Positions 1 through 37,664 of a DNA stretch of 64,000 bases are shown here, piece after piece. Position 1 is the stretch's first letter. Each line of letters opens with the position of its first letter. The stretch is taken from the NCBI GenBank assembly GCA_963716735.1, contig OY970321.1:2210021-2274020 (forward strand). The letters are read 5' to 3'. Source of the stretch: an uncultured Solirubrobacterales bacterium (GTDB lineage Bacteria; Actinomycetota; Thermoleophilia; Solirubrobacterales; 70-9). Made by a program: the position numbers and the translations under genes. The notes beneath the pieces were generated by a model. That model did not search any database. It saw only the letters and a program-made list of their open reading frames with translations, and was not told where the DNA came from.

Positions 1-288
1 GGCAACCGCGTCCCCCTCGAATGCCTCCAGCCCGGCACGGACGGCGAAGCCGAAGCCGTTTTCGTAGGGCGAGGGCAGGCAGCGCACTTGCGGATGCTCG
101 GCGGCGAAGGCTTCGACGACCGCCGCCGTGTTGTCGGCGCTGGAGTCGTCGACGACGATCACCTCGTGCTCGATCTGCTCCGCGTCCAGGGTCGAGACGA
201 TCTCGCCGAGCGTCTCGACGACCGTGCCGTCCTCGTTGTAGGCGGGGATCACCACCGAGAGCTTCAGCGGCGTGGTCGCGGACTCCAT
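1..288 (-). CDS. Glycosyltransferase family 2, Dpm1-like polyprenol-phosphate sugar synthase type (first 96 codons only; rest lies left of window)
   Basis: Own translation of minus strand from ATG 288-286: [31 protein letters not shown]...HEVIVVDDSSADNT...SPYENGFGFAVRAGL. VVIPAYNE and VDDxSxD motifs are typical of GT2. The ATG shares one base with the TGA of the upstream SDR gene (TGATG). Absent from the ORF track because it is truncated. Confidence 0.8.
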   Translation of the reverse strand, partial: MESATTPLKLSVVIPAYNEDGTVVETLGEIVSTLDAEQIEHEVIVVDDSSADNTAAVVEAFAAEHPQVRCLPSPYENGFGFAVRAGLEAFEGDAVA

Positions 289-1370
289 CAGGCCGCCTTC
301 TCGAAGCCGAGAGCCTCGGCGACGGCGGGCTCGTGGGCGACGGTCCACGCGAGCAGGTCGGCGAGCACGTCGCGGGCGCTGCGACGTGGTCGCCACGAGG
401 TGCGGGCGAAGAGCCGCGAGCAGTCCGAGAGGTAGATCGGCACGTCGCCGGGGCGGGTCTCGGGGTCGGCGCCGATCTCGATCTCGTTACCGGTCAGCTC
501 GCGGCAGAGTGCGGTCGTCTCCAGCAGCGAGAGGCTGCACTCGCGCCCGCCGCCGACGTTGGCAACCGAGCCGCTCCAGCCCTCCGGATCGCCCAGCTGC
601 TCGTCGACCAGGTCGACCAGGTCGTCGATGTGGAGCAGGTCGCGGACCTGCTTGCCGGCGCCGCCGAAGCCGATGTAGGAAAGCGACTTGCCGAAGTGGT
701 GGCTGAGCAGCCACCAGGAGAAGACGCCCTGATCGACCTTGCCCATCTGCCAGGGCCCGGCGATCACCCCGCAGCGGTTGACGACGGCGCGCAGGCCGAA
801 GGCGTCGGCGTACTCCTCGATCAGCAGCTCGGCCGAGAGCTTGGTGGCGCCGTAGAGGGTGCGGGCGCCGGGCAGCGGGAACTCCTCCGAGATGCCCAGC
901 GGGCCGGCGCCTGGGACGGGCTGCTCGGCGGCTAGCTCGAAGCGGGTCTCGCCCTCCTCCAACGCCAGCTCGAGCTGGGGGGCGACCGGGTAGACGCGGC
1001 TGGTCGAGAGGAAGACGACGAAGGCGTCCTCTTCGCGGGCGCGCTCGAGGCAGTTGAAGGCGCCGACGAGATTCGTCTGCACCGAGTAGGAGGTGTCGGC
1101 GAAGCCGGCCAGGACCGAGGGCTCGGCCGAGCACTCGACCATCGCGTCGAAGGAGCCGGCGGCGGCAAGGTCGGTCTGCTCGCGGACATCGCCGTGGACG
1201 AACTCGATCCCGGCATCGCGCAGGCGGGCCAGGTTCAGCTCCGAGCCGCGGCGCATCAGGTTGTCGAGCGCGACGACTTCCCAGTCCGGGTGGCGCGCTG
1301 CCAACGAGACGCCGAGGTTGGCTCCCACGAATCCGGCCCCGCCGGTGATCAGCACCCTCATCTGGCGCAT
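288..1370 (-). CDS. NAD-dependent epimerase/dehydratase (extended SDR, CDP-paratose/tyvelose 2-epimerase-like)
   Basis: ORF 288-1370. Rossmann motif [16 protein letters not shown], catalytic YGATK (YxxxK), [13 protein letters not shown]. The true start is probably ATG 1361 (MRVLITGG) rather than 1370. Confidence 0.85.
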
Positions 1371-1404
1371 TCATAGCAGGGGTGGCTTCGCTAGGCTGCG
1401 GCCG

Positions 1405-2478
1405 ATGCCGACCGCGATAGTCACTGGCTCGGGGGGCCTGATCGGCTCAGAGTCCGTCCGCCGTTTCATCGAGGCCGGTTGGGACATCGTCGGGATCGAG
1501 AACGACATGCGTGCTCGCTTCTTCGGCGAGGAGGCCTCGACCGCGCACGTGACCGAGGGACTGCGCGAGGGCTATGCCGAGTTCCGCTCGCTCGACCTCG
1601 ACATCCGCGACGCCGAGGGCATCAATCGCGCCTTCGCCGATCTGGGGGGCAAGCTCGATGCCGTCATCCACACCGCCGCCCAGCCTTCGCACGACTGGGC
1701 GGCCCGGGAGCCGCAGACCGACTTCGGCGTCAACGCGCTCGGCACGCTCAACCTGCTCGAGGCGGCGCGCGAGCACGCCCCGGACGTGCCCTTCATCTTC
1801 TGCTCGACCAACAAGGTCTACGGCGACACGCCCAACCGCCTGCCGCTGGAAGAGCTCGAGAAGCGGCTCGAACTGCCCGAGTCCCACCCCTTCCACAAGG
1901 GCATCGACACCTCGATGTCGATCGACCGTTCGACCCACTCGCTCTTCGGCGTCTCCAAGGCGGCGGCCGACCTGCTCGTGCAGGAGTACGGCCGCTACTT
2001 CGACATGCCGACCGTCTGCTTCCGCGGCGGCTGCCTGACCGGCCCCCAGCACGCCGGCGCCCAGCTGCACGGCTTCCTCGCCTACCTGATGAAGTGCACG
2101 GTCACCGGCACCCCCTACACCGTCTTCGGCTACGGCGGCAAGCAGGTCCGCGACAACATCCACAGCGCCGACCTGGTCGCCTGCTTCCAGTCCTTCCAGC
2201 GCGCCCCCCGCGCCGGCGCCGTCTACAACATGGGTGGCGGGCGCCGCAGCAACTGCTCGATGCTCGAGGCGATCGACGTCTGCGAGCGGATCAGCGACCG
2301 CAAGCTGCAGTGGGAGCTGAGCGACGAGAATCGCATCGGCGACCACCGCTGGTGGATCTCCGACGTTTCAGACTTCGCCGCCGACTACCCCGACTGGCAG
2401 CCGCGCTACGGCATCGACGAGATCCTCCAGGAGATGTACGAGCAGAACGTCGAGCGCTGGATGGCGACCGCGGGCTGA
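1405..2478 (+). CDS. NAD-dependent epimerase/dehydratase-like SDR (second, divergent paralog; catalytic Tyr position is Phe)
   Basis: In-frame ATG at 1405 ([16 protein letters not shown]). The upstream part of ORF 1093-2478 is antisense to the neighbouring gene. TGSGGLIG Rossmann motif and [13 protein letters not shown] are present. The YxxxK position reads FGVSK (codons 1945-1959). Confidence 0.85.
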
Positions 2479-2480
2479 AG

Positions 2481-4148
2481 CTAGCCGGCTTCGCGACCGA
2501 GGCCGCAGACCGTCGCCGGGCCGCCTTCGAGCTGCATCTTCCAGGGGACGGTGGAGAGGTCGCGGGGGATCGGCAGCGCCAGTGCTTCGCCGGCGCCGAC
2601 GCCCGTCTGGAAGTCGACCGGGAACTGCCTCCCCGTCGCGAACCGCCTCATCCTGATGTCGGTCACCGGTTTCGCGCCGGCGGCGATCGCGACACCGCCG
2701 GGCGGGACCTCGAACACGCGGGAGCCGGCGACGGCGAAGCACCCGTCGCTCGGTACCGCCGAGCGGGGGATCGGTTCGACCGCGATCCGCAGGGCGTTGA
2801 GCAGCACCTTGTCGGCGGCGAAGCGTGCGGGCTCCGGACTGCTCTGCAGCTCTGGGACGGTGAAGGCAGGAGAACCAAATGCGTCCACCGCGGAGAAATA
2901 GGAGCCGGCGTCGATGTGGTCGAAATTCGTATCGGCGAATTCCTCGTCGAGGTAGAAGCCCGGTTCGACCGTGTTCCTGGCGATCTCCAGTGCAGTCAGG
3001 TTCGCTTCGATGATCTGGCTGGTCCTCCGGTAGAAGTCATAGGACTGCTGGATGAGGAGTCCATTGCCGGCGAGCGAGACGGCGACGGCGATCAGCGCTG
3101 GAGGCAATAGGCGCCGGTCGAGCTTCAGGCCACTCAGCATTCCGGCGGCGACGAGCAAGACCATCGCCGCGCCGGGGTACTGGTAGCGGCTCGCCCACGG
3201 CACCCGGCCCGGCTTGACCGCGATCCCGCCGAAGACCCAGAACGCGATCGCGATCGCGATGACGACCCAGAGTGAGCGCGGGATGCGTTCGAGTTTGTAG
3301 AGGCGCCATGCCGCGAGCGCCCCGAGGCCGACGGCAAGCGGGCGCCCCCAGTCGAGGCCCGGCGGCGAGGGCAGGCCTTCGCCCATGGTCGCCAGGCCGG
3401 CCAGCGCTCCGCTCGCGGTGGCGAATGAGTCGAGCGCGAATATGGGCGCGGTAGCGATGTTGTGCAGTGTCACCGAGCTTTGGCCGCTGTTCCCCCAGCC
3501 GAGCCACCAGATCCCGTAGAGGACGACCGGCACCGCGACGACGAAGGCGCGCCGCCGCCAATCGCGGTCGGTCCGGCGCAGGACCACGTCCACGATGGCG
3601 CCGACGGCGAAGGCGAGCCAGAGGCTGGAGAAGAGCATCGCGCCGACCAGCCAGGCGCAGGCGAGGCGGTCGCCGACGCTGTCTCGCCGGTCGAGGGCCA
3701 CGAGCATGCCGAGGCCACAGGCCATCGAGCCGAGAAAGGTGATCGAGGCGAACCAGAAGAGGTCTTCGAAGGCTGCGCCGAGGAAGAGGATGGGCAGCGT
3801 CATCAGCAGGGCGCCCCAGCCGCCGATCCGGCGCCTGATCCAGACGAAGAGGAACCAGGCGCCGAGCAGGAGCATGGCGGTCGAGGCGATGCGGAAGGGC
3901 ACCAACGATCCCATGCCGAAGCCGGACAGCAAGAGCTTCCAGATCACGACCGCGCCGCCGACAAGGTGCTCGTTGGCCGGCGTCAGGAAGGCGTCGGCGT
4001 TGAAGTCGCGCCGGTAGAGGATGTAGGTCCAGTCGTCGAGGATGAAGGTCAGCCTCGAGCCGAGGACGACGATCACGACCCCGGCCACGAGCATCGCCGC
4101 CGCGAGCAGCAGCGACGCTGGGTTCTTCAGTCGGATTGCCCCGCCCAC
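2481..4148 (-). CDS. Polytopic membrane protein, possible GT-C-type (lipid-linked-sugar-dependent) glycosyltransferase
   Basis: 555-aa ORF with many hydrophobic segments in the N-terminal ~370 aa and a soluble C-terminal domain. An FILDDWTY motif follows the first TM, and an ALDRR motif comes later; both recur in the 26973-28727 protein. The start is GTG 4148; an alternative is ATG 4094 (MLVAGVV). Confidence 0.7.
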   Translation of the reverse strand: MGGAIRLKNPASLLLAAAMLVAGVVIVVLGSRLTFILDDWTYILYRRDFNADAFLTPANEHLVGGAVVIWKLLLSGFGMGSLVPFRIASTAMLLLGAWFLFVWIRRRIGGWGALLMTLPILFLGAAFEDLFWFASITFLGSMACGLGMLVALDRRDSVGDRLACAWLVGAMLFSSLWLAFAVGAIVDVVLRRTDRDWRRRAFVVAVPVVLYGIWWLGWGNSGQSSVTLHNIATAPIFALDSFATASGALAGLATMGEGLPSPPGLDWGRPLAVGLGALAAWRLYKLERIPRSLWVVIAIAIAFWVFGGIAVKPGRVPWASRYQYPGAAMVLLVAAGMLSGLKLDRRLLPPALIAVAVSLAGNGLLIQQSYDFYRRTSQIIEANLTALEIARNTVEPGFYLDEEFADTNFDHIDAGSYFSAVDAFGSPAFTVPELQSSPEPARFAADKVLLNALRIAVEPIPRSAVPSDGCFAVAGSRVFEVPPGGVAIAAGAKPVTDIRMRRFATGRQFPVDFQTGVGAGEALALPIPRDLSTVPWKMQLEGGPATVCGLGREAG

Positions 4149-4170
4149 GCCGGTAACCTATCTGCCCCTC

Positions 4171-5400
4171 TTGACGCTCCCCGCCCCATCCCCAGTCGCG
4201 ATCGAGGCCAGCGGCGTCGAGAAGACCTTTCGCATCCCCACCCAGCGGGTCGACTCGTTGAAGGAGCGGTTGACCACCTTCTCCGGCGGGGACTACCGTG
4301 AGCTGCGCGCCCTGCGAGACGTTTCCTTCGAGGTCGAGCGGGGGGAGTTCTTCGGCATCGTCGGCCGCAACGGCTCGGGCAAGAGCACCCTGCTGAAGAT
4401 CCTCGCCAGCATCTACGCGGCGGACGCCGGACGGGTGCGGATGGCCGGCCGCCTCGCCCCCTTTATCGAGCTTGGCGTCGGCTTCAACAACGAGCTGACC
4501 GCGCGCGAGAACGTCGAGCTGAACGGGGTGATGATGGGCCTCACGCGGCGCGACGCGCGCAGCCGCCTCGGCGCGGTGCTGGAGTTCGCCGAGCTGGAGG
4601 AGTTCGTCGACCTCAAACTGAAGAACTACTCCTCGGGGATGCTGGTCCGCCTCGCCTTCTCGGTGATGATCCAGTCCGACGCCGAGATCCTCCTGATCGA
4701 CGAGGTGCTGGCGGTCGGCGATGCCTCCTTCCAGCAGAAGTGCGCCGACGTCTTCTATGAGATCCGCGACTCCGATCGGACCGTCGTCTTCGTCACCCAT
4801 GACATGAGCGCGGTCGAGCAGTACTGCCACCGGGCGATGCTGCTTCACGATGGCGCTGTGCGGGCTATCGGCGCGGCCGACGAGGTGGCGCGCAGCTACC
4901 TTCGCCTCAACTTCGAGCAGGCTCCGAGCGACGGCGATGCAGATATGGGCGGGGTCGCCGACATCACGCTCAGCGACGTCTGGCTCGAGGACGGTGAGGG
5001 CCAGCGCATCACCAATGTCGAAAAGGGCTCTGAGCTGCGCTTCGGCGCGACGTTCGAAGCCCATCGCAAGGTCGAGGGCCCGAGCTTCGGGTTTGCTTTC
5101 ACCAACGCCGACGGGGTCGAGGTGACTGGGTTTGGCCTCGGCCTCTCCGGCGACGTACCCGACCTGCTCGAGCCGGGACAGCGGGTGAGCCTGAGCGGTG
5201 AGATCGAGAACCGGCTGGCACCCGGCCGTTACGTGACCAAGTGCTGGGTCCACCGGAACCACAACTTTGCCGACCTCGTCCTGCACTCGCCCCACGTGCT
5301 CGACTTCGTCGTCTACGGCAAAGACGGCGCGGGTGTGGTTGCTCTCAACCACGAGATCGTGGCGACGGTTGAGACCAAGGCGCCAGTGGAGGGATCGTGA
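4171..5400 (+). CDS. wzt: Polysaccharide/O-antigen ABC exporter ATP-binding protein with Wzt-type C-terminal extension
   Basis: Walker A GRNGSGKST, signature YSSGM, Walker B LLIDEVLAVGD, H-loop THD. About 150 extra C-terminal residues follow (ADITLSDVWLEDGEGQRI...FGFAFTNADGVEVTG...VLDFVVYG), beta-rich like the Wzt carbohydrate-binding domain. The start is uncertain. TTG 4171 is the first in-frame start not overlapping the divergent gene, and ATG 4042 would overlap it by 107 nt. Confidence 0.85.
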   Translation: MTLPAPSPVAIEASGVEKTFRIPTQRVDSLKERLTTFSGGDYRELRALRDVSFEVERGEFFGIVGRNGSGKSTLLKILASIYAADAGRVRMAGRLAPFIELGVGFNNELTARENVELNGVMMGLTRRDARSRLGAVLEFAELEEFVDLKLKNYSSGMLVRLAFSVMIQSDAEILLIDEVLAVGDASFQQKCADVFYEIRDSDRTVVFVTHDMSAVEQYCHRAMLLHDGAVRAIGAADEVARSYLRLNFEQAPSDGDADMGGVADITLSDVWLEDGEGQRITNVEKGSELRFGATFEAHRKVEGPSFGFAFTNADGVEVTGFGLGLSGDVPDLLEPGQRVSLSGEIENRLAPGRYVTKCWVHRNHNFADLVLHSPHVLDFVVYGKDGAGVVALNHEIVATVETKAPVEGS

Positions 5401-6248
5401 ACGCCGAGCCCTCGACCATGGAGTTGCGCGAGGTCACCGGCCCGTCCGCAATCGGCGGCGGTCGCCACCGCTTCTTCGAGTTGCTCTGGCTGATGTCGGT
5501 GACCGAGTTCAAGAAAACCTTCTTCGGCACCGTGCTCGGCTACGTCTGGTCGCTGATGCGGCCGCTGCTGCTCTTCGCCGTGCTGCTCCTCGTCTTCACC
5601 CAGGTCTTCAAACTCGGCAGTGAAGTGCCGCATTACGAAGTCCTGCTGCTCTTCAACATCGTCCTCTTCGGCGTCTTCCTGGAGGGGACCAGCGGTGCCG
5701 TTGGAGCGGTACTGGGGCAGGAGGGGATCGTTCGCAAGACCCAGTTCCCGCGCCTCGTCATCCCCCTCGCGGTCGTCCTGACGGCGGTCTTCACCCTCGG
5801 GCTCAACATGATCGTCGTCTTCGTCTTCATGCTCGCCTTTGGCATCGCGCCGATGTGGACCTGGCTTTTGTTCCTCCCGCTCATTCTCGTGCCGCTCCTG
5901 GTCTTCATCTGCGCCCTTGCGATGCTGCTCTCTGCGCTAAACGTCCGCTTCCGCGACGTGGCGATCATCTGGACGGTGGTGGCGACGGCGCTCAACTATG
6001 CGACCCCGATCCTCTATCCGCTGGAAATAATCCCCGAATCGCTGCGGCATGCCCTCATGGCAAATCCGCTTGCCCCCCTCTTCCAGCAGGCGCACATCTG
6101 GATGATCAATCCGCATGCGGAAGGTGTGCGGGCCGCCGCCGGTGGCCCCCTGCCGCTGATCGCCGCGGCCGTCATCTACGTCGTCGTTTGCGTTGCCGGC
6201 GTCTGGGTCTTCAACCGCGAGGCGCCGCGCATCGCCGAGCAGCTCTGA
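5397..6248 (+). CDS. wzm: ABC-2 type polysaccharide exporter permease
   Basis: 283 aa with six hydrophobic segments and an ABC-2 permease-like sequence (FRDVAIIWTVVATALNYATPILYP). The GTG start overlaps the wzt stop (GTGA at 5397-5400). Confidence 0.85.
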   Translation: MNAEPSTMELREVTGPSAIGGGRHRFFELLWLMSVTEFKKTFFGTVLGYVWSLMRPLLLFAVLLLVFTQVFKLGSEVPHYEVLLLFNIVLFGVFLEGTSGAVGAVLGQEGIVRKTQFPRLVIPLAVVLTAVFTLGLNMIVVFVFMLAFGIAPMWTWLLFLPLILVPLLVFICALAMLLSALNVRFRDVAIIWTVVATALNYATPILYPLEIIPESLRHALMANPLAPLFQQAHIWMINPHAEGVRAAAGGPLPLIAAAVIYVVVCVAGVWVFNREAPRIAEQL

Positions 6249-6297
6249 GCAGTGGGCGCTACTTTCCCTCTCGGGGCCGTTTCAGGGTGATGCGTTG

Positions 6298-7425: not shown

Positions 7426-8301
7426 GCGGAAGAGATTGACCGAGCCGATGCGGCGCATCGCGTACTGGTCGTAGGGCAGGTCGCCGCGCCAGCGGTTGTG
7501 CGCCTCGGCGGAGACGAAGTAAGTCTCGGGGTCGCTTTCCATCGCCTCGATCTGGCCCGCCAGGTCCCGCTCGGAGAGGCCGAGGGCGGCGACGATCGCG
7601 TCGAGTTTCTCGCGGTGCTCCTCGGCGCCCCAGCCGGCGAGGACGTGATCGACGGCGTGGATCGAGCAGCCGTTGCGCTTCTGTACCAGCTCGTGGCCGG
7701 CTTCGACCACCCTGGCGACGTGCTCGAGTGGCACATGCTCGAGCACCGAGATCGAGAAGACCGCGCCGAAGTCGTCGCCGACGTCCTCGTTCGGTGGGAA
7801 GAGCTCGCGGACGAAATGCACATCGGGGTAGGCGCTCTGGAAGCGCTTGAACTCGCGCGGGCCGTTGCCGCCGCCCATGTAGTCGTCGACCACGGTCACG
7901 TCGTAACCGAGGCGCGAGAGCATCCCCGCTACCAGCGGCTCGCCGGCACCGATCTCGAGGATGCGGTCGCCGCGCTCGACGTTGCCGAGGATCGCCTTGA
8001 TCGCCCAGCAGCGCTGCAGGTCCTTCATGTCGAAGCTCGCTCCGGCGAGGCCGGTGAGGTGGTCGGCGCTGTCGGCGAAATCGCGCACGGTGCCATAGGA
8101 GATCGCTGCTAGCGGGAAGTCGCCGACGTAGCGCTCGGCGATCGGCCACAGCGCGCTGTCGGCGATCGTCCAGGCCGAGGCGTTGGCGCCGGGCGTCGCC
8201 CCCGAGGGGGCGTAGAGCGCGGCCTTGCCCGCCAGTTTGCGCAGCAGCGGCGAACGCGCCGCGGCGGCGCGCAGGCGTTGGGCCTGTGCCGTCGCGCTCA
8301 C
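7414..8301 (-). CDS. Class I SAM-dependent methyltransferase
   Basis: RILEIGAGEPLVAGMLSRLGYDVTVVDD ... FGAVFSISVLEHV (motifs I-III). I prefer GTG 8301, which forms a GTGA overlap with the upstream GT4 stop. The ORF track start is 8337. Confidence 0.75.
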   Translation of the reverse strand: MSATAQAQRLRAAAARSPLLRKLAGKAALYAPSGATPGANASAWTIADSALWPIAERYVGDFPLAAISYGTVRDFADSADHLTGLAGASFDMKDLQRCWAIKAILGNVERGDRILEIGAGEPLVAGMLSRLGYDVTVVDDYMGGGNGPREFKRFQSAYPDVHFVRELFPPNEDVGDDFGAVFSISVLEHVPLEHVARVVEAGHELVQKRNGCSIHAVDHVLAGWGAEEHREKLDAIVAALGLSERDLAGQIEAMESDPETYFVSAEAHNRWRGDLPYDQYAMRRIGSVNLFRSAG

Positions 8302-12604: not shown

Positions 12605-12617
12605 TGGGCGCTGGGCG

Positions 12618-17303: not shown

Positions 17304-17305
17304 CG

Positions 17306-19287: not shown

Positions 19288-19305
19288 GCCGGGATAATCG
19301 CAAGC

Positions 19306-25228: not shown

Positions 25229-25250
25229 CGTATTGCCGCTGCGCTCTAGC

Positions 25251-31700: not shown

Positions 31701-32340
31701 CGGTCCCGACGATCCGCTCATCTACAACTCGGAGCAAATTGCGTTCCTGGGCTGGATCGAGGCATGTCCGATCCTCCCGCGTGCGAGCGAGATCATCCAT
31801 ACAGGCCCCTGGGCGGTGGTCGCGCTCCATCGCCGGGTCAACCGCGCGGTGTGGAAGCACAGCTATCGTGCCGACTCGCCGCTGCGGGCGGAGGGGGAGG
31901 GAATCGCGCTGGGCTTGCTTCAGCGCCACGCCGGTCCCGGGGCGGTTGCGCTCCGACTTCGGTCCGACGGCCGCCTCGCCAGCGAGCTCGTCAACCCGGG
32001 ACGCGCCAGCCGTGACCCGCGCAAGATCGGGCGTTGGGTCGCAGAGCCGCTGCACGCAGAGGATGCTGGACATCGAGCTGTCGGCGCCGGATCACGTCTG
32101 CGCCACCTCGCGAGCAACTTTCGAGGGCGTCGCCTCGCGACGGAGGAGGGCGAGGTTCTCGGCTATCTACGGCGCCAGACCATGTCCGGCTGCAGCACCC
32201 TCTACAGCACGATCCACCCTGTCACCGGCGATCAGCTCGTCACCCGCTTCCCGTCCGAGGCGATAGACGCCGGCTATGTGATGGACGGCATCCTGGGGGC
32301 GATCTTCGATCCGCCCGGCGATTCGACTCGAACTTTCTAG
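28741..32340 (+). CDS. Giant multidomain glycosyltransferase (GT4 + GT2 + ~550-aa C-terminal region of unknown function)
   Basis: GTG 28741. GT4: ILYLAPWVDLGGSDRG...SVYEGIPLVIYEALAMGVPVVAPALPGNVE. GT2: VGVIVPCYRHGIFLDACIASIKAQTL...VVVDDGSKD...PIDADDEL...EDWDL. From about residue 650 I recognise no catalytic motif. Confidence 0.8.
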   Translation: MSDERTPILYLAPWVDLGGSDRGTIDWFKNIDLSRWAPSLITTTPSPNRWLHHVEPYAEEIWNLPDLMPGAAFPEFILGFIESRQVGVVHIMNSRLGYDLLPDMTCLPEPPAIVVQLHAEEPNQTGYVRYVTRRYGNLIDSFSVVSENLKQTIVDYEIPPSRIEVIYLGVDSREEFDPERVEPLELPGNGASRILWPGRLVEQKDPMLTLEVLARVRERDEDFVLDVVGDGHLKEPARARAEELGVADVIQWHAPSQDMARWYRSSDLLLMTSVYEGIPLVIYEALAMGVPVVAPALPGNVEFMDADSGVLVDPRDDVDRYAEAIVSLLGDDERRREMGERSRKRMLEQFSLAEMGRRHDALYERLLSEQTASSRWRNEELFGEEDPGHREPSSAPPAPLRLSRDPLPEPTVGVIVPCYRHGIFLDACIASIKAQTLTPSQIVVVDDGSKDAETVAALARLDDDPQVTVLRQPRNSGPSAARNRALAQLKTSYFLPIDADDELLPDALERMLAQLEGAPEEVGFVYPNAQHVGNQMNYVQSPAYNVWLLMEQNYCPAPALFDRRLFEGTGVSYPEEIVVGHEDWDLILQLAERDVRGIPANGPTFLYRKQGFSRVHAVDYGPESFEKTIERRHPHLYLDRDDLKAKWAPALSLVLLDEEGDTWKADDLSGLTRQTCRDFELLAGTDLGGRVRLVEGPGKLSIAWLQAAIDRARGRWILLLPHSAFPILESSSFVEQLIHAFSANEGATAIVLADSTEIARPLFSQLDNAERLRAQPAAIAFERPLWGRVPEITLGVEASLLADLVVGLRVIGPAQWRVAPGVDGGGPWRQRVEPEDHPAMIDVNVPVPADKADAAMRHMVAHQPPRLPELTPGTVRRWKQSEPWTPPQTRLLCRHLDLKTGFRMITPERKPPSGYRFERVLGCTQIFAAPGMSRLVHANHSFELTDEQGALPDGQFDMGYVEQQPLPQLEGLELRRVPETGQEILVAGPDDPLIYNSEQIAFLGWIEACPILPRASEIIHTGPWAVVALHRRVNRAVWKHSYRADSPLRAEGEGIALGLLQRHAGPGAVALRLRSDGRLASELVNPGRASRDPRKIGRWVAEPLHAEDAGHRAVGAGSRLRHLASNFRGRRLATEEGEVLGYLRRQTMSGCSTLYSTIHPVTGDQLVTRFPSEAIDAGYVMDGILGAIFDPPGDSTRTF

Positions 32341-33632
32341 CTCGAACTCCTCCGCCGACGGAGTGCAGCGCCGGCCTTGCGCATCGGAGCCGTCATTCGC
32401 CAGGAGCGCGATTCGAGTATCTCGGCGAGCGCGGCCGCGGAGTGCTCGTCGGCCGGCGGGTCAGGCGCGCTGCCGCCGCTCAGCGGTGGCGGGCCCGGCA
32501 GGTGACGTCGCCGGTAGCTCGGGGGCAGGCCGAAGCCTCGTTTGCTCCTTTCCACGACCCCTTCGACGGCGGGCTCCAGGTCGGCGCGGCCCGCGGCCCG
32601 GACGGCGTCGAGCACGTCTTCCCAGAGGGTGAGGACGAGGATCTGTTTGGTCTTGAACGTGGCGAGATTCTGCAGGTCGAGGTCAGGCGGGAAGGTTTGA
32701 ATTCCGGAGCGAACGCCGAACGCCTCCAGGGTGATCATGGTCATCAGGCACTTCCGGCAGCGGCCGCAGTTGTAGGCGCTCCCACGGTTCTCCCAGCAGA
32801 CGCGAAGCGTTCGCTGCACCAGCGGGTGGCCGGCGATCCTTTTCGTTCGCTCGGCTCGTGAGTAGCGCCCGCCATCGTCGACGATTTCGAGCTGCTCGCT
32901 GTTCCAGAGGTGGTCGACGAGCCGGGCCGAGCCGATCGGAGGACCGTCGACCTCATGGTCCATGCCGCTGGCGAGCAGCACCCTTTCGAACCTGGGTGCC
33001 AGGAAGTGGGCCACCGCCATGCAGGCGCTGGCGTAGTAGGCATCCCAGAGCACCAACGGGTCGGAGAGCTCCCTCAGGTCGGTTTCGACCACGTGCAGAG
33101 TGAGGCCCAATTCTTCGGCCACCTCACGCACACGTGCTTCGACCTCGGGAGCGACCTCCGCGTGGTGCGTTGCCCCCGGGATCAGATCGAACCCACGGGC
33201 AAAGATGAGGTCGGTGATCTCGGGATGGTCGAGCAGCGTCGACCAGGAGTCGACCCCGCCGCTGAAGAAAGCCGCGACACGACCGGGTTCCCGCGGGGCC
33301 TCAGGCGCACGCGTGGGCGCGATCACCTCCACCTCCTCGAACGGGGGTTCGCCGAACTCCCAATCGAGCGACCAGGCGCGCTGGACCGCCTGGTACTCCC
33401 GCTGAGATCGCAGAACTCTTGGGCTGACCGGCCCAGGCAGCGTGAGGGTGCCACCGAAGCGCATCGCCGGCATCAGGCACGCGGCGAGCGCCGGGTCGGC
33501 GCCGGTGGCGGTCTCGCCACCCTCCGCCCGCATCCGCACGCGCCGGTCGTGTCCGCCCAGCCGCGCGCGGAAGCTGAGCTCGCCCGGCGAGCAGTTCAGC
33601 TCGGTGACCTCGTGATGGTCCGTCGCGGCCAC
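32337..33632 (-). CDS. PP-loop (SGGxDS) ATP-pyrophosphatase-like protein, QueC-like Cys cluster, SWRMTAPMR tail
   Basis: AAFFSGGVDSWSTLL (PP-loop) and VCWENRGSAYNCGRCRKCLMTMITLEAFG (CxxCxxC as in QueC-type enzymes). An N-terminal ~125 aa and a C-terminal Pro-rich linker plus LESRSWRMTAPMRKAGAALRRRR are unassigned. Confidence 0.65.
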   Translation of the reverse strand: MAATDHHEVTELNCSPGELSFRARLGGHDRRVRMRAEGGETATGADPALAACLMPAMRFGGTLTLPGPVSPRVLRSQREYQAVQRAWSLDWEFGEPPFEEVEVIAPTRAPEAPREPGRVAAFFSGGVDSWSTLLDHPEITDLIFARGFDLIPGATHHAEVAPEVEARVREVAEELGLTLHVVETDLRELSDPLVLWDAYYASACMAVAHFLAPRFERVLLASGMDHEVDGPPIGSARLVDHLWNSEQLEIVDDGGRYSRAERTKRIAGHPLVQRTLRVCWENRGSAYNCGRCRKCLMTMITLEAFGVRSGIQTFPPDLDLQNLATFKTKQILVLTLWEDVLDAVRAAGRADLEPAVEGVVERSKRGFGLPPSYRRRHLPGPPPLSGGSAPDPPADEHSAAALAEILESRSWRMTAPMRKAGAALRRRRSSS

Positions 33633-33638: not shown

Positions 33639-35144
33639 TCAGTGCGAGCCCTCGCCGCGCACGATCGCGGCGGGGGTGCGCAGCAGGATCGCCAGGTCGC
33701 CGGCGACGGAGATGTTGTCGAGGTAGTCGCGCTCCATCGCCAGCCGCTCCTCGAAGGTCAGGTCGGCGCGGCCGTATACCTGCATCGGGCCCGTCATCCC
33801 CGGCTTGACCGCGAGCCGGATCCGCTGGCGCTCGTCGTAGAGGGCGACGACCGCTTCCTCCTCCGGCCGCGGGCCGACCAGCGACATGTCGCCGCGCAGG
33901 ACGTTGACGAACTGCGGCAGCTCGTCGAAGCTGAAGCGGCGCAGCATGCGGCCCACACGGGTGACGCGGGGATCGTCGGCGATCTTGAAGGCGGGCTCTT
34001 TGAGCTTCTCGAGGTCGACCAGTTCGCCCAGCTGCTCCTCGGCTCCCTGGACCATCGTGCGGAACTTGAGGACGGTGAAGGGCTTGCCGTCCTTGCCGGC
34101 CCGCCTCTGCCGGAAGAGCACCGGCCGGCCCGAGTCGAGCAGGATCAGCACCGAGCTGACGAGCAGCACGGGGGAGAAGAGCACGAGCAAAAACGCGCTG
34201 ATCGTCACGTCCATGAATCGCTTCAGCGCTTCGGTCGAGCGTGGCGGATCGGAGAAGCGGAAGTCGAGGACTGGTAGCTCGGCGAGCCGGTTCAGCTCGA
34301 TGCCGGGCCCGAGCAGGCCGAAGTGCTGGGGCAGGAAGGTGAGCGCCAGGCCGGCGGCCTTGCACTGCTCGATCAAGCGCTCCGCCGCCGCCTCGCTCAT
34401 CTCCTGCTCGGTCACGATCACTCGCTCGACGTCGTGTTCGCGGGCGACGCGGGAGATGTCGCCGATCGATCCGAGGCGCGGCAGTCCGCCCATCCGGGGT
34501 GCGGCGTCCTCTCCGCGCGGCGTCAGGTAGCCGACCAGGTGCAGCCGGGTCTCCGGGTGGGTGGCGACCCGGCGGGCGACCACGGTGATCGCCGCCGCCG
34601 GCCCGACCACGATCCCGGTCGCGGCCCCGGCCAGGCGGTGCCAGAAGAAGCGCAGGACGGCGCGTGAGGCAAAGGCACCGATCAGCGCGCCCAGGCCGAC
34701 GGCGATCGCGCTGGCCGCCGCCAGTGGCCCTACCGGGCTCAGCGCCAGCAGCCCGTCCAGTGCCAGCGTCCCCAGAGCCGCCGCCGAGATCAGGCTGGAG
34801 AGCTCGTCGAGGGTGCTGTGGCGGATGCGGCGGTGGTCGTTGTCGTAGAGGCCGTGCAGCTTCAGCACGAGGATCCAGACCGGGCTGAACATCGTCGCCC
34901 AGAAGAGCGTGCCGACATCGGTCTCCGGGCTCGCCGCAGTGACGATGCAGAGCGTCGCCACCATGGTCAGCCAGTCGCCGGTTGCCAGCATCCGCCGCAG
35001 CAGCGAGCCACGCCGCCGCGCTCCGCCGGCGCCGGTCAGTCCCAGCCGGGTTGCCGCCTCGGTTCTGCCACCACGCGGGTCCGGCCCTGGCTGTTGTGCC
35101 GGCGAGGTCATACGGGTTGGGGTCTCCTGCGCCTTGCTCGTCAT
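33639..35144 (-). CDS. Polyprenyl-phosphate sugar phosphotransferase (WbaP/WsaP/CpsE-type initiating enzyme)
   Basis: N-terminal TM block, central Rossmann-like region, and a C-terminal bacterial sugar transferase domain. Motifs: LKRFMDVTISAFLLVLFSPVLLV...RRAGKDGKPFTVLKFRTM...DELPQFVNVLRGDMSLVGPRP. The start is taken at ATG 35144 (MTSKAQ); the track start 35189 is TTG. Confidence 0.88.
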   Translation of the reverse strand: MTSKAQETPTRMTSPAQQPGPDPRGGRTEAATRLGLTGAGGARRRGSLLRRMLATGDWLTMVATLCIVTAASPETDVGTLFWATMFSPVWILVLKLHGLYDNDHRRIRHSTLDELSSLISAAALGTLALDGLLALSPVGPLAAASAIAVGLGALIGAFASRAVLRFFWHRLAGAATGIVVGPAAAITVVARRVATHPETRLHLVGYLTPRGEDAAPRMGGLPRLGSIGDISRVAREHDVERVIVTEQEMSEAAAERLIEQCKAAGLALTFLPQHFGLLGPGIELNRLAELPVLDFRFSDPPRSTEALKRFMDVTISAFLLVLFSPVLLVSSVLILLDSGRPVLFRQRRAGKDGKPFTVLKFRTMVQGAEEQLGELVDLEKLKEPAFKIADDPRVTRVGRMLRRFSFDELPQFVNVLRGDMSLVGPRPEEEAVVALYDERQRIRLAVKPGMTGPMQVYGRADLTFEERLAMERDYLDNISVAGDLAILLRTPAAIVRGEGSH

Positions 35145-35151
35145 CGTCGGC

Positions 35152-37167
35152 TCACCCGCAGCTCGGTTTCCCGCGGAGACACTTCTCAAGCGGGTTCAGG
35201 TGTCGTGCCTGTTCCAGATCCGCTTCGGCCGCGGCCTGGTCGCCCGCCTCTTCCTCGACTTTAGAGCGTAGGTAGTAGTACTGCCAGTTGCGGTCCTCGC
35301 GGTCGATGGCTTGCGTTAGGCGTTCGACGGCCACCGGATAATTCCCTTCGCTCTCGGCGATCAGGCCGAGCTGCACGTAGGGAGAGGCGGCGAAGGGCTC
35401 GATCGAGCGCGCCGTCTTGGCGTGGCTGGTGGCGCTGGTGAGGTCGCCGTTTGCGGCGGCGCTCTGACTGGCGTCGAGCTCGCGATCGACGAGCAACGGA
35501 CCGATCAGCGCGATCGCCGCCATCCAGGCGACCGCGAGGCCGGCGACCGCGAGGCCGAAGCGCCGCTCTTCGCCCGCGGCTACGAGGCGGGGGTCGGGAG
35601 GAGCCGCCAGTTGGGCGCACCTGGCCGCCACCAACACCCCCGAGGCGAGGAAGAAGACCACCCCCAGGCCGGCGATCTCCCAGAACCAGTCGAGCCCGGC
35701 GACCACGGCGAAGGCGAGCGTCGCCGCGAGGAGCGCGGCGTAGCGCTCGCGTTGCGGGTGGGGCGCGGCGCGCCAGGCGCTGAACCCGGTCCAGAGCAGA
35801 GTGGCGACCAGCACCAGCACGAGCAGCCCGCCGACGATGCCGAGCTCGGCGAAGGCCTCCAGGTAGAGGGAGTGGGCATCGTGGACCGGCATGTCGATCG
35901 AGCGATGTCGATCCCAGGCGAACACGTAGGTGCCGGCGCCGACCCCGAGCAGCGGCTTTTCGTCGAAGGCATCGATCGCGACGCGGTAGAAGTCGTGACG
36001 GCCGGCCCCGTTGAACTGCGAGAAGTGCTGCTCGGGCTGGTTCGGGAACTGGACGTCGGAGCTGGAGAACTGATCCCAGGCACGACCGCCGATCGCGATC
36101 GCCACCCCGATCGCAATGACCGCCGCCACCGCGGCGACGCCTTTCAGCAGCGACCGGTTGCGCGAGAGATCGACGGCGCGGCCGGTCAACCGCCCTTCTC
36201 GCCGCTCGGCCCAGCGCTGCGCGGCGAAGAGCAGCAGGGTGAGGGCGACCCCCGCGGCGAGGATCAAGAGCACGGTCACGCCCTGGTCCACGGCGGCCTG
36301 GTTGTCGACGTGGTCCGCCAGGCTGTGCCGCGCCTGCACCGCAAGCACCGCCGGTAGTGCGCCCAGGGCCCCGCAGGCCAGGGTCGCAAGCAGCCAGAGG
36401 CGGTCTCGGGAGAGGACGATGAGACAGCCGGCGGCGATCAGCAGGGCCAGCAGCCCACCGCGCGAGTAGGTGAAGTAGAGGGCGAGCATGACCACCGGCA
36501 ACATCCCGGCAGCGAGCCAGCGCAGTCCGCTCCAGGCCGCTCTGCGGCTGCTCCAGAGCAGCAGGGCGATGGCGATCCCGAACATCGCGCCGTTGGCGTT
36601 CCAGTAGCCGAGCGGGTAGCCCAGGCGCGGGCCGGTACCGAATGCGTCGCCGGCCTGCAATACGTGCGGTAGAAGGCGGCTCGCGAGGGCCAGCAGGGCG
36701 ACGAGCGCCAGAGAAATTGCCAAGCCTTCAGCGAAACGTTGGCGCCTTTGGTCGGTTTGGGCGATCAGGAATGCGACTAGGAAGACCCCCAGGTAGACCA
36801 GACCCCGGTCCGCCTCGATCACGCTCAGCTCGGCTGAGCCCGACCAGAGGGATGAAATTGCAGCCAGCAGGGAAAAACCGAGAGTCAGTCCCGTCGCCCA
36901 GTAGAACGGTCGTGCCAGCGTTGCCCGGGAGGCGACGCCGAGCAGGATCAGCGCGACCACGACAAGCCATACGGCAAGGCCCGCAATGTGGCGATCGCTC
37001 ACCTCGAAACCGCCGCCAGCCAGCGCCAGAGCGACGATCAGGACGACTGGCGCAAGTAACGCCGAGCTTTCCTCTAACCTACCGCGCCATGTTTGGGACG
37101 CGCCAAAATCTCGCCCCTCGCCGGGGCGGCCACGTCTTCGCTCTGTCAGTGCTGGCTCTGCTGGCAA
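35152..37167 (-). CDS. O-antigen ligase/polymerase-like (Wzy_C domain) membrane protein with C-terminal TPR repeats
   Basis: More than 10 TM segments. LALYFTYSRGGLLALLIAAGCLIVL (Wzy_C-type SRGG motif) and a large loop with HDAHSLYLEAFAELG. C-terminus: PYVQLGLIAESEGNYPVAVERLTQAIDREDRNWQYYYLRSKVEEEAGDQAAAEADLEQA (TPR-like). The TTG start 37167 is uncertain; it overlaps the divergent gene by 79 nt. Confidence 0.8.
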   Translation of the reverse strand: MPAEPALTERRRGRPGEGRDFGASQTWRGRLEESSALLAPVVLIVALALAGGGFEVSDRHIAGLAVWLVVVALILLGVASRATLARPFYWATGLTLGFSLLAAISSLWSGSAELSVIEADRGLVYLGVFLVAFLIAQTDQRRQRFAEGLAISLALVALLALASRLLPHVLQAGDAFGTGPRLGYPLGYWNANGAMFGIAIALLLWSSRRAAWSGLRWLAAGMLPVVMLALYFTYSRGGLLALLIAAGCLIVLSRDRLWLLATLACGALGALPAVLAVQARHSLADHVDNQAAVDQGVTVLLILAAGVALTLLLFAAQRWAERREGRLTGRAVDLSRNRSLLKGVAAVAAVIAIGVAIAIGGRAWDQFSSSDVQFPNQPEQHFSQFNGAGRHDFYRVAIDAFDEKPLLGVGAGTYVFAWDRHRSIDMPVHDAHSLYLEAFAELGIVGGLLVLVLVATLLWTGFSAWRAAPHPQRERYAALLAATLAFAVVAGLDWFWEIAGLGVVFFLASGVLVAARCAQLAAPPDPRLVAAGEERRFGLAVAGLAVAWMAAIALIGPLLVDRELDASQSAAANGDLTSATSHAKTARSIEPFAASPYVQLGLIAESEGNYPVAVERLTQAIDREDRNWQYYYLRSKVEEEAGDQAAAEADLEQARHLNPLEKCLRGKPSCG

Positions 37168-37664
37168 TGTGCTGTGTTCCGGTGCTCGCTCAGGCTTCGT
37201 CCGCCGGCTACCAGTATTCCGATGCGCCGCCCACGGTAACCGGGGGCAAGCCGCCGAGTGAATCGAATCTCTCGGGTGGCTCCAAGTCGACTAGCGGCAT
37301 CGGCTCGCACGCGGGCAGTGGCAAGTCGGGTGGGAAGTCTTCTGGTGGGAATGGCTCACTCTCAAAGTCCAATGGCTCCGGTGGCGGCGGAAACGGAGCA
37401 GGCCAGCAGGGTAGCCAAGGCGGCGGCAACCAAAACTCGGGTGTCGGGGCCGGAGGAGAAGCAAACGGCACCAGCGCCGAACCGGGATCGAGCGACGGCG
37501 GCTCTTCGCCGCTGGTGCCGATCCTGATCGCGATCGTGCTGCTCGCCGGTGGCTCCATCGCCTATGTGGTGATCAAGCGTCGCCGCGCCGGCGACCCTGG
37601 CTCGGCCGACTCGACCGATTCGCCGGGGTCCGCCGACTCCTCCGTCTCGCCCGAGGCGAGTTAG
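37089..37664 (+). CDS. Gly/Ser-rich secreted protein with C-terminal membrane anchor
   Basis: ATG 37089. Signal peptide MFGTRQNLAPRRGGHVFALSVLALLAMCCVPVLAQA. About 110 aa of G/S/N/K low complexity follow, then TM PLVPILIAIVLLAGGSIAYVVI and KRRRAGD plus an acidic Ser-rich tail. Confidence 0.6.
   Translation: MFGTRQNLAPRRGGHVFALSVLALLAMCCVPVLAQASSAGYQYSDAPPTVTGGKPPSESNLSGGSKSTSGIGSHAGSGKSGGKSSGGNGSLSKSNGSGGGGNGAGQQGSQGGGNQNSGVGAGGEANGTSAEPGSSDGGSSPLVPILIAIVLLAGGSIAYVVIKRRRAGDPGSADSTDSPGSADSSVSPEAS

Follow-up and report, generated by a model that had tools for sequence, protein, structure and literature searches.

The question raised by the locus described here is which surface glycan it builds and onto what that glycan is finally transferred. 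The locus lies in a 64,000-nucleotide stretch of DNA from an uncultured Solirubrobacterales bacterium (assembly GCA_963716735.1, contig OY970321.1, positions 2,210,021 to 2,274,020; hereafter the window, numbered from its first nucleotide), and among its products is a Wzy_C-family membrane protein with a C-terminal tetratricopeptide repeat (TPR) tail, here Wzy_C-TPR. We read it, with a probability of roughly 55%, as a cell-surface glycan locus of a presumed monoderm that works like the S-layer glycosylation (slg) clusters or the ATP-binding cassette (ABC)-dependent, capped O-polysaccharide pathways, and in which Wzy_C-TPR would transfer the whole glycan to an acceptor outside the membrane. This reading is drawn from sequence comparison and from analogy with known systems. 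Literature searches found no paper on such a glycan system in the Solirubrobacterales lineage, in agreement with a preliminary description of this DNA, which knew of none characterized there.

Extent and organization of the locus

The GC content of the window is 62-73%, so that most long open reading frames (ORFs) are shadows; genes were hence called from third-codon-position GC and then checked with Pfam and NCBIfam hidden Markov models (HMMs). About 33 genes lie between the left window edge and position 38799, all either related to glycan synthesis or without an assigned function, and they are organized as ~13 short transcription units of alternating orientation. The argument is carried by the following genes.

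4042..5400, plus strand: Wzt, ABC ATPase with a C-terminal carbohydrate-binding domain (PF00005, 72.7 bits; PF14524, Wzt_C, 61.5 bits vs cutoff 30.4)
5397..6248, plus strand: Wzm, ABC-2 permease (PF01061, 53.6 bits)
11528-12604, plus strand: rmlA (TIGR01208, 487 bits)
12618-13472, plus strand: rmlD (PF04321, 303 bits)
~13469-14452, plus strand: rmlB (PF16363, 230 bits)
~14460-15000, plus strand: rmlC (PF00908, 235 bits)
20794..21678, minus strand: GT2b, a conserved family 2 glycosyltransferase (GT) (PF00535, 50 bits; weak rhamnosyltransferase match, TIGR01556, 35 bits)
33639..35189, minus strand: WbaP/WcaJ-type polyprenyl-phosphate hexose-1-phosphate transferase (PGT) (PF02397, 209 bits; CoA_binding_3; TIGR03025, 352 bits vs cutoff 295.6)
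35152..37167, minus strand: Wzy_C-TPR, Wzy_C-family glycan transferase of the WaaL/O-oligosaccharyltransferase (O-OTase) superfamily with a C-terminal three-repeat TPR tail (PF04932, 61 bits; TPR_16)
37089..37664, plus strand: 191-aa type-I membrane protein (stalk protein), with signal peptide, N-terminal Tyr motif, Gly/Ser-rich stalk, transmembrane anchor and short tail
37669..38799, plus strand: secreted GH39/PslG-like glycoside hydrolase (PslG 5bx9, E=5.4e-10; GH39 xylosidases, E=3e-5; NEPN and TEVGW motifs)

The inventory of seven functions given in the preliminary description was largely borne out by the HMMs, and four points in it are corrected here: the number of GT genes, the PP-loop enzyme, the boundaries and the mosaic nature of the locus. 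Translational coupling, described for most of the genes, holds inside the short units and not across units of alternating orientation. The extent, given as 1-37664, is too narrow on both sides. Positions 1-288 encode the first 96 residues of another GT2, i.e., the cluster is cut by the left window edge, and on the right it ends at 38799, as the small gene at 37089-37664 and the GH39-like gene at 37669-38799 belong to it; the former end coordinate was set by a long ORF (36642-37664) that is mostly a shadow of the Wzy_C gene. What had been taken for a single supercluster is a mosaic of a conserved core and variable cassettes.

A conserved core in about 160 related loci

Two sets of related loci were compared with the window. 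The genome set, searched with window proteins by tblastn, holds 80 species-level loci with Wzy_C-TPR at 62-92% identity, all from uncultured Solirubrobacterales, Conexibacteraceae or Actinomycetota and many on closed chromosomes of 2.4-3.1 Mb; the independent metagenome set holds 80 loci at 55-92% identity, which makes ~160 related loci together. The named Wzy_C-TPR homologs all come from metagenome-assembled genomes of Solirubrobacterales, and a metagenome scan with the deep Wzy_C-TPR alignment returned the same lineage alone (55-92% identity), so the genome is indeed of the actinobacterial type formerly assumed, the ~160 loci being all from Solirubrobacterales or Actinomycetota. Cultured Solirubrobacter is Gram-positive, with rhamnose and galactose among the whole-cell sugars. 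As had been noted for the DNA then in view, lipid A and core genes are missing: the 64-kb window and 44 kb of a relative (L081/L082) contain none of them, and no lpx, waa, lpt or bam gene either.

Both sets gave the same near-invariant core, i.e., the GH39-like hydrolase, the stalk protein, Wzy_C-TPR, PGT and one GT2, usually with the rml genes close by, and the GT and amino-sugar cassettes between the core genes vary among the loci. The backbone runs in the order RTX, PCMT, Crp, Lhr, GH39-like, Wzy_C-TPR, PGT, GT2b, a variable stretch of 0-6 kb and rmlCBDA. PGT lies directly downstream of Wzy_C in 76 of the 80 genome loci and in all 61 metagenome loci with enough sequence; GT2b follows within 117 nt of PGT in 58 of 63 loci, with a median identity of 81%; and the GH39-like gene is present in 77/80 genome and 52/52 metagenome loci. 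In the window, 12 kb are inserted between PGT and GT2b, the largest insertion seen (GC 62-66% vs 69-72%).

In compact relatives, the genes for the GH39-like hydrolase, the stalk protein, Wzy_C-TPR, PGT and GT2b fit with rml into ~10 kb, and in six of them (L042, L011, L077, L028, L006 and L039) Wzt comes after rml at less than 10 kb from Wzy_C, together with Wzm in two, where the available flank is long enough to show it. That core, rml and Wzt stand together in these compact loci suggests one pathway. On the long contig that is closest to the window, which measures 327 kb and has core proteins at 93-98% identity, Wzy_C and Wzt are ~30 kb apart, just as they are here. With its conserved frame and swappable cassettes, the locus behaves like an O-antigen or capsule locus.

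The predicted transferase Wzy_C-TPR

Wzy_C-TPR belongs to a large family: at E<=1e-30 there are 1433 representative clusters, and for many of them the match spans the whole protein, with 33-38% identity. In an alignment of 83 sequences R390 and H432 are invariant and S235-R236 is at least 90% conserved; H432 lies within the motif AHSLYLEx3ELGxxGG. An R..R..H pattern and a TPR tail are features of ligases and O-OTases. R215, R288 and H338 have been reported as important in Escherichia coli WaaL and are conserved in PglL (PMC3643930), and R236, R390 and H432 of Wzy_C-TPR follow in the same relative order. Against the PDB, the family profile matched WaaL (7tpg, E=1.3e-6) and an entry named 'oligosaccharyltransferase' (9rmk, E=1.4e-6); single-sequence and shallow-profile PDB searches returned no WaaL, and the deep profile alone matched. 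By these sequence criteria Wzy_C-TPR is a member of the WaaL/O-OTase superfamily, within which profile matches do not tell which activity it has.

Hydropathy and the positive-inside rule predict about 15 transmembrane segments with the N-terminus inside, which places both the catalytic loop (369-430) and the TPR tail (573-671) outside the membrane. The tail resembles three-repeat TPR structures, CTPR3 included, with a TM score of ~0.9 in Foldseek.

Whether such a protein polymerizes repeat units or transfers a finished chain can be approached from the company it keeps. Wzy_C-TPR is 55-92% identical over the ~160 loci while the GT content between PGT and rml varies, and some loci have extra polymerase-like genes (O_anti_polymase or Wzy_C) in the variable part. 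A MOP/Wzx flippase was found neither among the ORFs of the cluster nor among ORFs with at least eight transmembrane segments within ±10 kb of the 80 relatives. The conserved Wzy_C-TPR amid changing GTs, the extra polymerase-like genes and the lack of a MOP flippase together favor a ligase or oligosaccharyltransferase over a repeat-unit polymerase, and this pattern fits an enzyme that would act on a conserved reducing end.

The stalk protein as candidate acceptor

Between the Wzy_C-TPR and GH39-like genes lies the gene of the stalk protein, which was overlooked in the preliminary description and gives the protein-linked reading proposed there its strongest lead. Where enough upstream sequence is available, the stalk protein is encoded in 76/78 loci of the genome set and 66/70 of the metagenome set (142/148 total). 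It has no Pfam match, and its JGI annotation is a truncated version. The Sec signal peptide (MFGTRQNLAPRRGGHVFALSVLALLAMCCVPVLA, cleaved before QASS) is followed by a conserved mature N-terminus with the consensus [D/E]SSG[I/V][Q/E]Y[E/S]D-A-x-P-T; among 140 unique stalk sequences the motif Tyr occurs in 92% (99% of the ungapped ones) and the Pro in 84%. Next is a low-complexity stalk of ~110-140 residues (Gly 23.5%, Ser 18%, Ala 11%, Pro 8%, Thr 6%), after which a conserved transmembrane anchor (GGSSPLVPILIAI...) leads into an Arg-rich stop-transfer sequence; the short tail ends in VSPEAS.

Codon-position variability supports the stalk frame from 37131 on and the Wzy_C frame up to 37088. The TTG at 37167 is the sole in-frame canonical (ATG/GTG/TTG) start of Wzy_C upstream of its conserved first transmembrane segment, and the stalk ATG is at 37089; the two divergent genes thus seem to overlap head-to-head by at most 79 nt (37089-37167). 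The GH39-like gene starts 4 nt 3' of the stalk gene on the same strand, and with this gap the two are probably co-transcribed.

O-OTase genes often lie beside those of their targets, and low-complexity regions are where PglL modifies its substrates (PMC3643930); in Paenibacillus, S-layer glycans are Tyr-linked via a Gal-Rha3 adaptor by the TPR-bearing WsfB (PMC2943079). On these three grounds the stalk protein is a reasonable acceptor candidate and, by analogy, the one we would tentatively favor. More ambitiously, the four genes for stalk protein, GH39-like hydrolase, Wzy_C-TPR and PGT may form the core of a new monoderm glycoconjugate, a 'protein-anchored O-antigen'. Wzy_C-TPR would act as an O-oligosaccharyltransferase and link a capped rhamnose polymer, ABC-exported and variable among strains, to the stalk protein, whose flexible stalk would span the cell wall; the site is possibly the near-invariant Tyr, as in Paenibacillus. 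The product would stand in for lipopolysaccharide (LPS) or lipoglycan in this widespread soil lineage, and the swappable amino-sugar cassettes would give serotype-like variation. In such a conjugate the N-terminal Tyr motif is the sole conserved outside element of the stalk protein. We regard this extension as speculative, possible but on the doubtful side.

Priming, export and the proposed pathway

The likely start of PGT is the ATG at 35144, with PF02397 at residues 323-510 and four to five transmembrane segments; the Wzy_C-TPR gene is directly upstream, and the two ORFs abut or overlap. For Wzt the start is probably at ~4195, and its nearest NCBIfam families are TagH and the galactan Wzt; the Wzt_C domain is also found on the relative's Wzt. 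The start of Wzm overlaps the stop of Wzt by 4 nt. The rmlADBC genes (11528..15000) provide dTDP-L-rhamnose synthesis inside the cluster.

From these parts we infer the order of the steps, the cap and the acceptor of the following pathway. The WbaP-type PGT would place hexose-1-phosphate on undecaprenyl phosphate, and GT2b, a candidate adaptor (rhamnosyl?) transferase, would add the adaptor using dTDP-rhamnose from RmlABCD. Single- and multi-domain GT2/GT4 enzymes would then elongate the chain in the cytoplasm, and a methyltransferase would probably cap it. Wzm/Wzt would export the chain, its end being recognized by the Wzt_C domain, and Wzy_C-TPR would transfer the finished glycan whole onto the extracytoplasmic acceptor. 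In a side branch, WecE and WecD would make dTDP-4-acetamido-4,6-dideoxyhexose, an ArnC-like GT2 would load the sugar onto undecaprenyl phosphate, and a GT-C-fold protein would add it to the polymer outside. PslG-like GH39 hydrolases may finally trim or release the polymer.

The defining parts of slg clusters are a WbaP-type initiator (WsaP/WsfP), Wzm/Wzt, a Wzy_C transferase (WsaB/WsfB), rmlABCD and a methyl cap (PMC2943079). The analogy with these clusters, proposed earlier, stands at the level of architecture, where every slg defining enzyme has a counterpart here, that of the methyl cap being a candidate.

Alternative explanations

Several observations pull the other way. The 'S-layer' label is not supported, for no S-layer structural gene or S-layer homology (SLH) domain was found in any ORF scanned in the window, and the locus is therefore not classed as an slg cluster. 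The PglL-specific Pfam domains (PglL_A / Wzy_C_2) were not detected in Wzy_C-TPR, where just Wzy_C and TPR families appear at E<=0.01, and the Wzy_C domain occurs in Wzy polymerases too. Its AlphaFold2 (AF2) model, built on a shallow alignment (73-94% identity), has a pLDDT of 56, and Foldseek matched the TPR tail alone. What links the stalk protein to Wzy_C is conserved adjacency within one syntenic lineage. The methyltransferase calls are either weak (7414-8337) or located in a variable cassette (17306-18040). Furthermore, Wzm/Wzt in the window are 30 kb away from the PGT and Wzy_C genes, and at this distance two separate pathways are possible, as in the enterococcal polysaccharide antigen (EPA) of Enterococcus faecalis.

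The strongest rival grows out of this last point. It is a dual-chain wall polysaccharide like EPA or the lactococcal cell-wall polysaccharide: a rhamnan backbone, primed by a WecA/TagO-type enzyme encoded elsewhere, would receive a methyl cap, leave the cytoplasm through Wzm/Wzt and be attached to peptidoglycan by an LCP enzyme, and separate PGT-primed subunits, products of the variable GT cassettes, would be flipped, after which Wzy_C-TPR would polymerize them or ligate them onto the rhamnan. E. faecalis EPA has the same split as the window, where variable cassettes fill the 30 kb between PGT plus Wzy_C and Wzm/Wzt, and the cultured relatives are Gram-positive and contain rhamnose. However, the EPA decoration locus has a Wzx/MOP flippase, and none lies in the window cluster or within ±10 kb of the 80 relatives; a WecA/TagO-type initiator or LCP gene is likewise absent from the 64-kb window and the relative's 44 kb (it may be elsewhere in the genome), and the compact relatives have ~4 GT genes in total beside PGT and Wzt, few for two polymers. 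We consider it improbable, if to be taken seriously. Weaker, and decidedly improbable, is a Psl-like secreted or capsular exopolysaccharide, in which Wzy_C-TPR would be the Wzy polymerase of PGT-primed repeat units, the GH39-like hydrolase would play the part of PslG, and Wzm/Wzt would serve another polymer or act as the flippase. PslG is the closest solved relative of the adjacent hydrolase (E=5e-10), the conserved set of PGT, GH39 and Wzy_C recalls PslA and PslG, Psl also includes Wzy-like membrane proteins, and the Pfam family Wzy_C also covers polymerases. Yet flippase, PCP/Wzz and tyrosine-kinase genes are not present, Wzy_C-TPR stays conserved while the GTs vary and some loci have O_anti_polymase or further Wzy_C genes in their variable regions, and TPR tails are known from WsfB and PglL (PMC2943079), just as the family profile matches WaaL and an O-OTase.

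Finally, an ordinary ABC-dependent LPS O-antigen locus of a diderm, with Wzy_C-TPR as WaaL, deserves hardly any weight. Wzm/Wzt with Wzt_C plus a Wzy_C ligase is classic O8/O9a-type logic, and the family profile matches WaaL 7tpg. But the ~160 related loci all come from Solirubrobacterales or Actinomycetota metagenome-assembled genomes, the cultured members are Gram-positive, and we know of no Actinomycetota with LPS; lpx, waa, lpt or bam genes occur in no sequence examined. Moreover, the initiator is a WbaP-type PGT, whereas an ABC-dependent O-antigen is expected to start with a WecA homologue (PMC2943079).

The amino-sugar cassette and two orphan GT-C-like proteins

The amino-sugar branch of the pathway is encoded by a cassette in the variable part of the locus, and a second polytopic protein of similar kind adjoins Wzt.

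24056..25252, minus strand: WecE-type dTDP-4-amino-4,6-dideoxyhexose transaminase (NF008687, 540 bits vs cutoff 375; TIGR02379, 522 bits vs cutoff 435)
25176..26255, plus strand: ArnC/GtrB-like polyprenyl-phosphate sugar transferase, GT2 (NF007986, ArnC, 231 bits over the full length; PgfS, 163 bits)
26252..26983, plus strand: WecD-like GNAT N-acetyltransferase (NF008212, 83 bits, full length, under the 219-bit cutoff; PF00583)
26973..28640, minus strand: candidate orphan GT-C-fold membrane glycosyltransferase, 555 aa (near-invariant DDW after the first transmembrane segment)
2481..4148, minus strand: orphan polytopic membrane protein, ~10 transmembrane segments, 555 aa (LDDW after the first of them; C-terminal soluble domain by hydropathy)

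The ArnC-like GT2, whose 231 bits are below the 529-bit equivalog cutoff, ends in two to three C-terminal transmembrane helices (265-324). In a set of 5.8 billion proteins, the protein of 26973-28640 has 25 homologs, and Pfam domains are absent from all of these. Its AF2 model (mean pLDDT 77.7) was compared with the PDB by Foldseek, and the top 19 matches are all GT-C enzymes (AftA, STT3/PglB/AglB, ALG3 and Pmt4) at a probability of 0.99-1.00, with E=1.5e-3 to 6e-2 and TM scores of 0.3-0.44; lower-ranked matches mostly have probabilities of at most 0.2, the exception being Pmt1-Pmt2 at rank 27 (0.99), also a GT-C. The six-gene cassette with the WecE, ArnC-like, WecD and GT-C genes is co-inherited in another locus (L029) at 55-78% identity.

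In a relative whose core proteins are 93-98% identical (L082, 18341-21878), the same position holds a non-orthologous, analogous cassette of a DegT aminotransferase, an FdtA-LbH (left-handed beta-helix) fusion, a GtrB-like GT2 with two C-terminal transmembrane helices and a 540-aa polytopic FLDDW protein. Judged by its predicted enzymes, this exchange replaces a 4-acetamido dideoxyhexose by a 3-acetamido one, in the manner of a serotype change. By analogy with Arn and Gtr systems, the N-acetylated aminodideoxyhexose is probably loaded on undecaprenyl phosphate and added outside the membrane, not built into the main chain. The 4-acetamido-4,6-dideoxyhexose formerly assigned to the polymer thus keeps its WecE and WecD-like genes; its probable place is in a lipid-linked extracytoplasmic decoration, made by the ArnC-like GT2 and the GT-C-fold protein, and not in the main chain. 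Between the genes called at 24056-28727 there is no space for a small flippase of the GtrA/ArnEF type, for which no dedicated small-ORF search was made.

The protein of 2481-4148, which adjoins Wzt, has 445 homologs, none with a Pfam domain, and no match itself in Pfam, NCBIfam or the PDB. Two paralogs adjoin a soluble GT2 in a relative, and we consider it a candidate GT-C-type glycosyltransferase. An acidic pair after the first transmembrane segment marks its family, of which three or four copies stand beside a soluble DPM1-like GT2 just past the left edge (L081, 15903-21241). Compared with one another by BLASTP, the two polytopic proteins have the LDDW motif alone in common, a match that is not significant.

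Other genes of the locus

The remaining genes include those predicted for nucleotide sugars, chain elongation and modification.

1..288, minus strand: 5' part (96 codons) of a soluble GT2 (N-terminus matches a 252-aa GT2 of relative L081, 15148-15906; PF00535, 90 bits)
288..1370, minus strand: SDR1, NAD-dependent sugar epimerase/dehydratase (PF01370, 119 bits; no NCBIfam equivalog reached)
1093..2478, plus strand: second SDR epimerase/dehydratase, SDR1 paralog (PF01370, 125 bits, domain from residue 107; true start probably ~1400)
6193..7425, plus strand: secreted GH39/PslG-like hydrolase (38% identity to 37669-38799, E=4e-84; signal peptide from ~6298)
7414..8337, minus strand: weak S-adenosylmethionine (SAM)-methyltransferase-like protein (ILEIGAGE motif; Methyltransf_23, E=0.02; UbiG, E=1e-3)
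8298..9482, minus strand: GT4 glycosyltransferase (PF13692, 49.7 bits)
9479..11254, minus strand: dual-GT2 glycosyltransferase (PF00535, 122 bits in two stretches; C-terminal half GT21-like)
11258..11488, minus strand: 76-aa charged helix-like protein coupled to the dual GT2 (third-position GC 0.92; conserved in L070, L002, L007 and L081)
14997..17549, minus strand: GT4-GT2 fusion, variable cassette (PF00535, 88.8 bits, with PF13579 and PF00534; start probably ~17300)
17306..18040, minus strand: SAM-dependent methyltransferase, variable cassette (PF13489, E=2.9e-8)
18187..19257, minus strand: GT4-like glycosyltransferase, 356 aa (PF13692, E=7.5e-4; frame-specific GC)
19261..19968, plus strand: LbH sugar acetyltransferase of the NeuD/PglB/VioB family (PF00132, 100 bits; TIGR03570, 100.6 bits)
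19976..20797, minus strand: secreted 273-aa protein coupled to GT2b (signal peptide MKRIVVSLVSVIALIAV; one ortholog, in L007)
21686..22612, minus strand: GT2, variable cassette (PF00535, 99.8 bits)
22637..24022, minus strand: polysaccharide pyruvyl transferase, variable cassette (PF04230, 47.3 bits vs cutoff 25.3)
28741..32340, plus strand: GT4-GT2 fusion with a 580-aa C-terminal region (PF00534, 103 bits; PF00535, 96 bits)
32337..33632, minus strand: 431-aa protein with an SGGVDS (PP-loop-like) motif and a CxxCxxC cluster (motif by eye)

At least 11 GT genes had been counted before. We find eight cytoplasmic GT genes, i.e., a GT4, the dual GT2, a GT4-GT2 fusion, a GT4-like enzyme, three single GT2 and the GT4-GT2 protein with the 580-residue C-terminus, which hold ~11 GT domains, plus the two GT-C-like membrane proteins. 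For the 580-aa region (30541-32340), neither Pfam nor the PDB gave a match; its conservation in the relative is 93%, and it might serve as an additional catalytic or chain-length domain. A longer ORF running to 19713 over the GT4-like gene is an antisense shadow of the LbH gene. Past the left edge, the relative L081 has the 252-aa soluble GT2, then three polytopic membrane proteins and another GT2.

Of two methyltransferase-like genes named in the preliminary description, that at 17306-18040 is secure (PF13489, E=2.9e-8) and that at 7414-8337 is weak (E ~1e-3 to 2e-2); the latter protein is 94% identical in a relative (L081) and a possible chain-capping enzyme. A PP-loop enzyme had been placed at 32337-33632. 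Its SGGVDS motif is there and a family match is not: the protein has no Pfam, NCBIfam or PDB match, so the label rests on the motif alone, although it is kept beside PGT in L082 (91%) and L022 (74%). The proposed decorations are present as genes (LbH acetyltransferase; pyruvyl transferase, 47 bits vs cutoff 25), with the qualification that three functions, for pyruvyl, acetamido sugar and one of the methyl groups, are encoded in cassettes that vary among strains and are no part of the conserved system. Anchoring of the CsaB/SLH S-layer type was rejected, since the pyruvyl transferase scores 24 bits against CsaB (cutoff 213) and lies in a variable cassette, and there is no SLH domain. Secreted hydrolases were announced in the plural; up to 37664 there is one GH-like hydrolase only (6193-7425), and the second lies beyond. 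The 273-aa secreted protein matches nothing in Pfam, NCBIfam or the PDB.

Some local features are recorded here. A 66-nt inverted repeat (614-679 vs 2114-2179, 83% complementary) reflects the divergently oriented SDR paralogs. The starts of the 76-aa protein gene and of the divergent rmlA are separated by 39 nt (11489-11527), so their promoters must overlap. In L081, AAA-ATPase genes (AAA_14/DUF4143 and AAA_16; 1233-2540 and 11665-12885) interrupt the glycan cluster where the window has no gene; mobile elements or insertions of a defence type are possible explanations. The cassette borders show neither IS-like nor long repeats, and there is no tRNA gene at the cluster and no Rfam family inside it.

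Neighboring genes

To the right of 38799 follow the housekeeping genes Lhr helicase, Crp, PCMT and GroES/EL (Pfam/NCBIfam). At 43662-44606 (plus strand) an Ig-like 'choice-of-anchor D' protein is encoded, secreted or anchored (NF012200, 83 bits), with an Ala/Pro-rich, strongly basic C-terminal tail. Two paralogous secreted proteins, 46005-47804 and 47879-49777 (both minus strand), have Sec-type signal peptides and eight to nine RTX calcium-binding repeats. Such proteins are unusual for a presumed monoderm; their synteny is conserved ~9 kb from the glycan core, and they are possibly surface-layer or matrix proteins. The 3' part of a tRNA gene (63934-64000, minus strand; Rfam RF00005, 29.5 bits, just over the gathering score) is cut by the right window edge.

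Significance

Solirubrobacterales are abundant soil bacteria with essentially unstudied envelopes, and the clade considered here is known from metagenome-assembled genomes alone. The locus offers a concrete, testable model for the main variable surface glycan of this lineage, and a conserved frame into which cassettes can be swapped is of interest for the encounters with phages and predators and for the typing of strains in metagenomes. If Wzy_C-TPR does glycosylate the stalk protein, a long polysaccharide would have a new type of carrier in a monoderm cell, and, to our knowledge, protein O-glycosylation of the Wzy_C type would be described for the first time in Actinomycetota. Two orphan families of GT-C-like proteins without a Pfam model also come to light, and an Arn-like route is suggested for dTDP-derived acetamido-dideoxyhexoses. 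The main value of the locus lies less in a gene list than in three features: a conserved core of four genes, the one for the stalk protein among them, exchangeable Arn-like cassettes for amino sugars, and the orphan families of GT-C-like proteins.

Comparison with known systems

With the Psl system of Pseudomonas the locus shares a secreted GH39-like hydrolase (PslG) encoded beside a WbaP-type PGT; here, the alignment covers ~200 residues at E=5e-10, and there are two paralogs. Like the O8/O9a-type O-polysaccharides of E. coli with WaaL, it has Wzm/Wzt with a C-terminal carbohydrate-binding domain, predicted cytoplasmic polymerization on undecaprenyl pyrophosphate, a candidate methyl cap and a Wzy_C-family enzyme with conserved Arg and His, but it differs in its WbaP-type PGT in place of WecA, in the ~15 predicted transmembrane segments and outside TPR tail, and in that no lipid A-core acceptor is expected. 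EPA and the rhamnose wall polysaccharides of Gram-positive bacteria resemble it in a conserved part with rml, ABC transporter and methyl cap (the cap being a candidate here), a conserved priming transferase and a strain-variable decoration region with an O-antigen-ligase homolog. In contrast to EPA, no Wzx flippase, WecA-type EpaA or LCP gene was found, and Wzy_C-TPR and PGT belong to the conserved core.

The amino-sugar cassette is comparable with Arn (ArnB/C/T) and Gtr-type systems in combining an aminotransferase, an N-acyltransferase, an ArnC-like GT2 with C-terminal transmembrane helices and a GT-C-fold membrane transferase. Here, however, the predicted sugar is a dTDP-linked 4-acetamido-4,6-dideoxyhexose (3-acetamido in the close relative), the GT-C family is an orphan without a Pfam model, no small GtrA/ArnEF-type flippase was seen among the called genes (a small-ORF search was not dedicated to it), and the target would be a polymer or protein, not lipid A.

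Closest in architecture are the slg clusters of Geobacillus stearothermophilus NRS 2004/3a and Paenibacillus alvei CCM 2051T, with a WbaP-type hexose-1-phosphate initiator, Wzm/Wzt, a Wzy_C transferase with TPR, rmlABCD, multi-domain GTs and a methyltransferase cap (PMC2943079). In these, too, the GC content is lower than that of the surrounding genome, WsfB has a C-terminal TPR while WsaA is a separate TPR protein, and the P. alvei adaptor is Gal-Rha-Rha-Rha (PMC2943079). P. alvei also has a lipid-linked branching-sugar route (WsfH/WsfD) and an Asn-synthase homologue of the PP-loop family, WsfA (PMC2943079). The present locus departs from them in belonging to Actinomycetota and not Firmicutes, in having no S-layer structural gene or SLH domain nearby, and in its much larger, mosaic layout, where orphan GT-C-like proteins are encoded and where a stalk protein and GH39-like hydrolases flank the predicted transferase.

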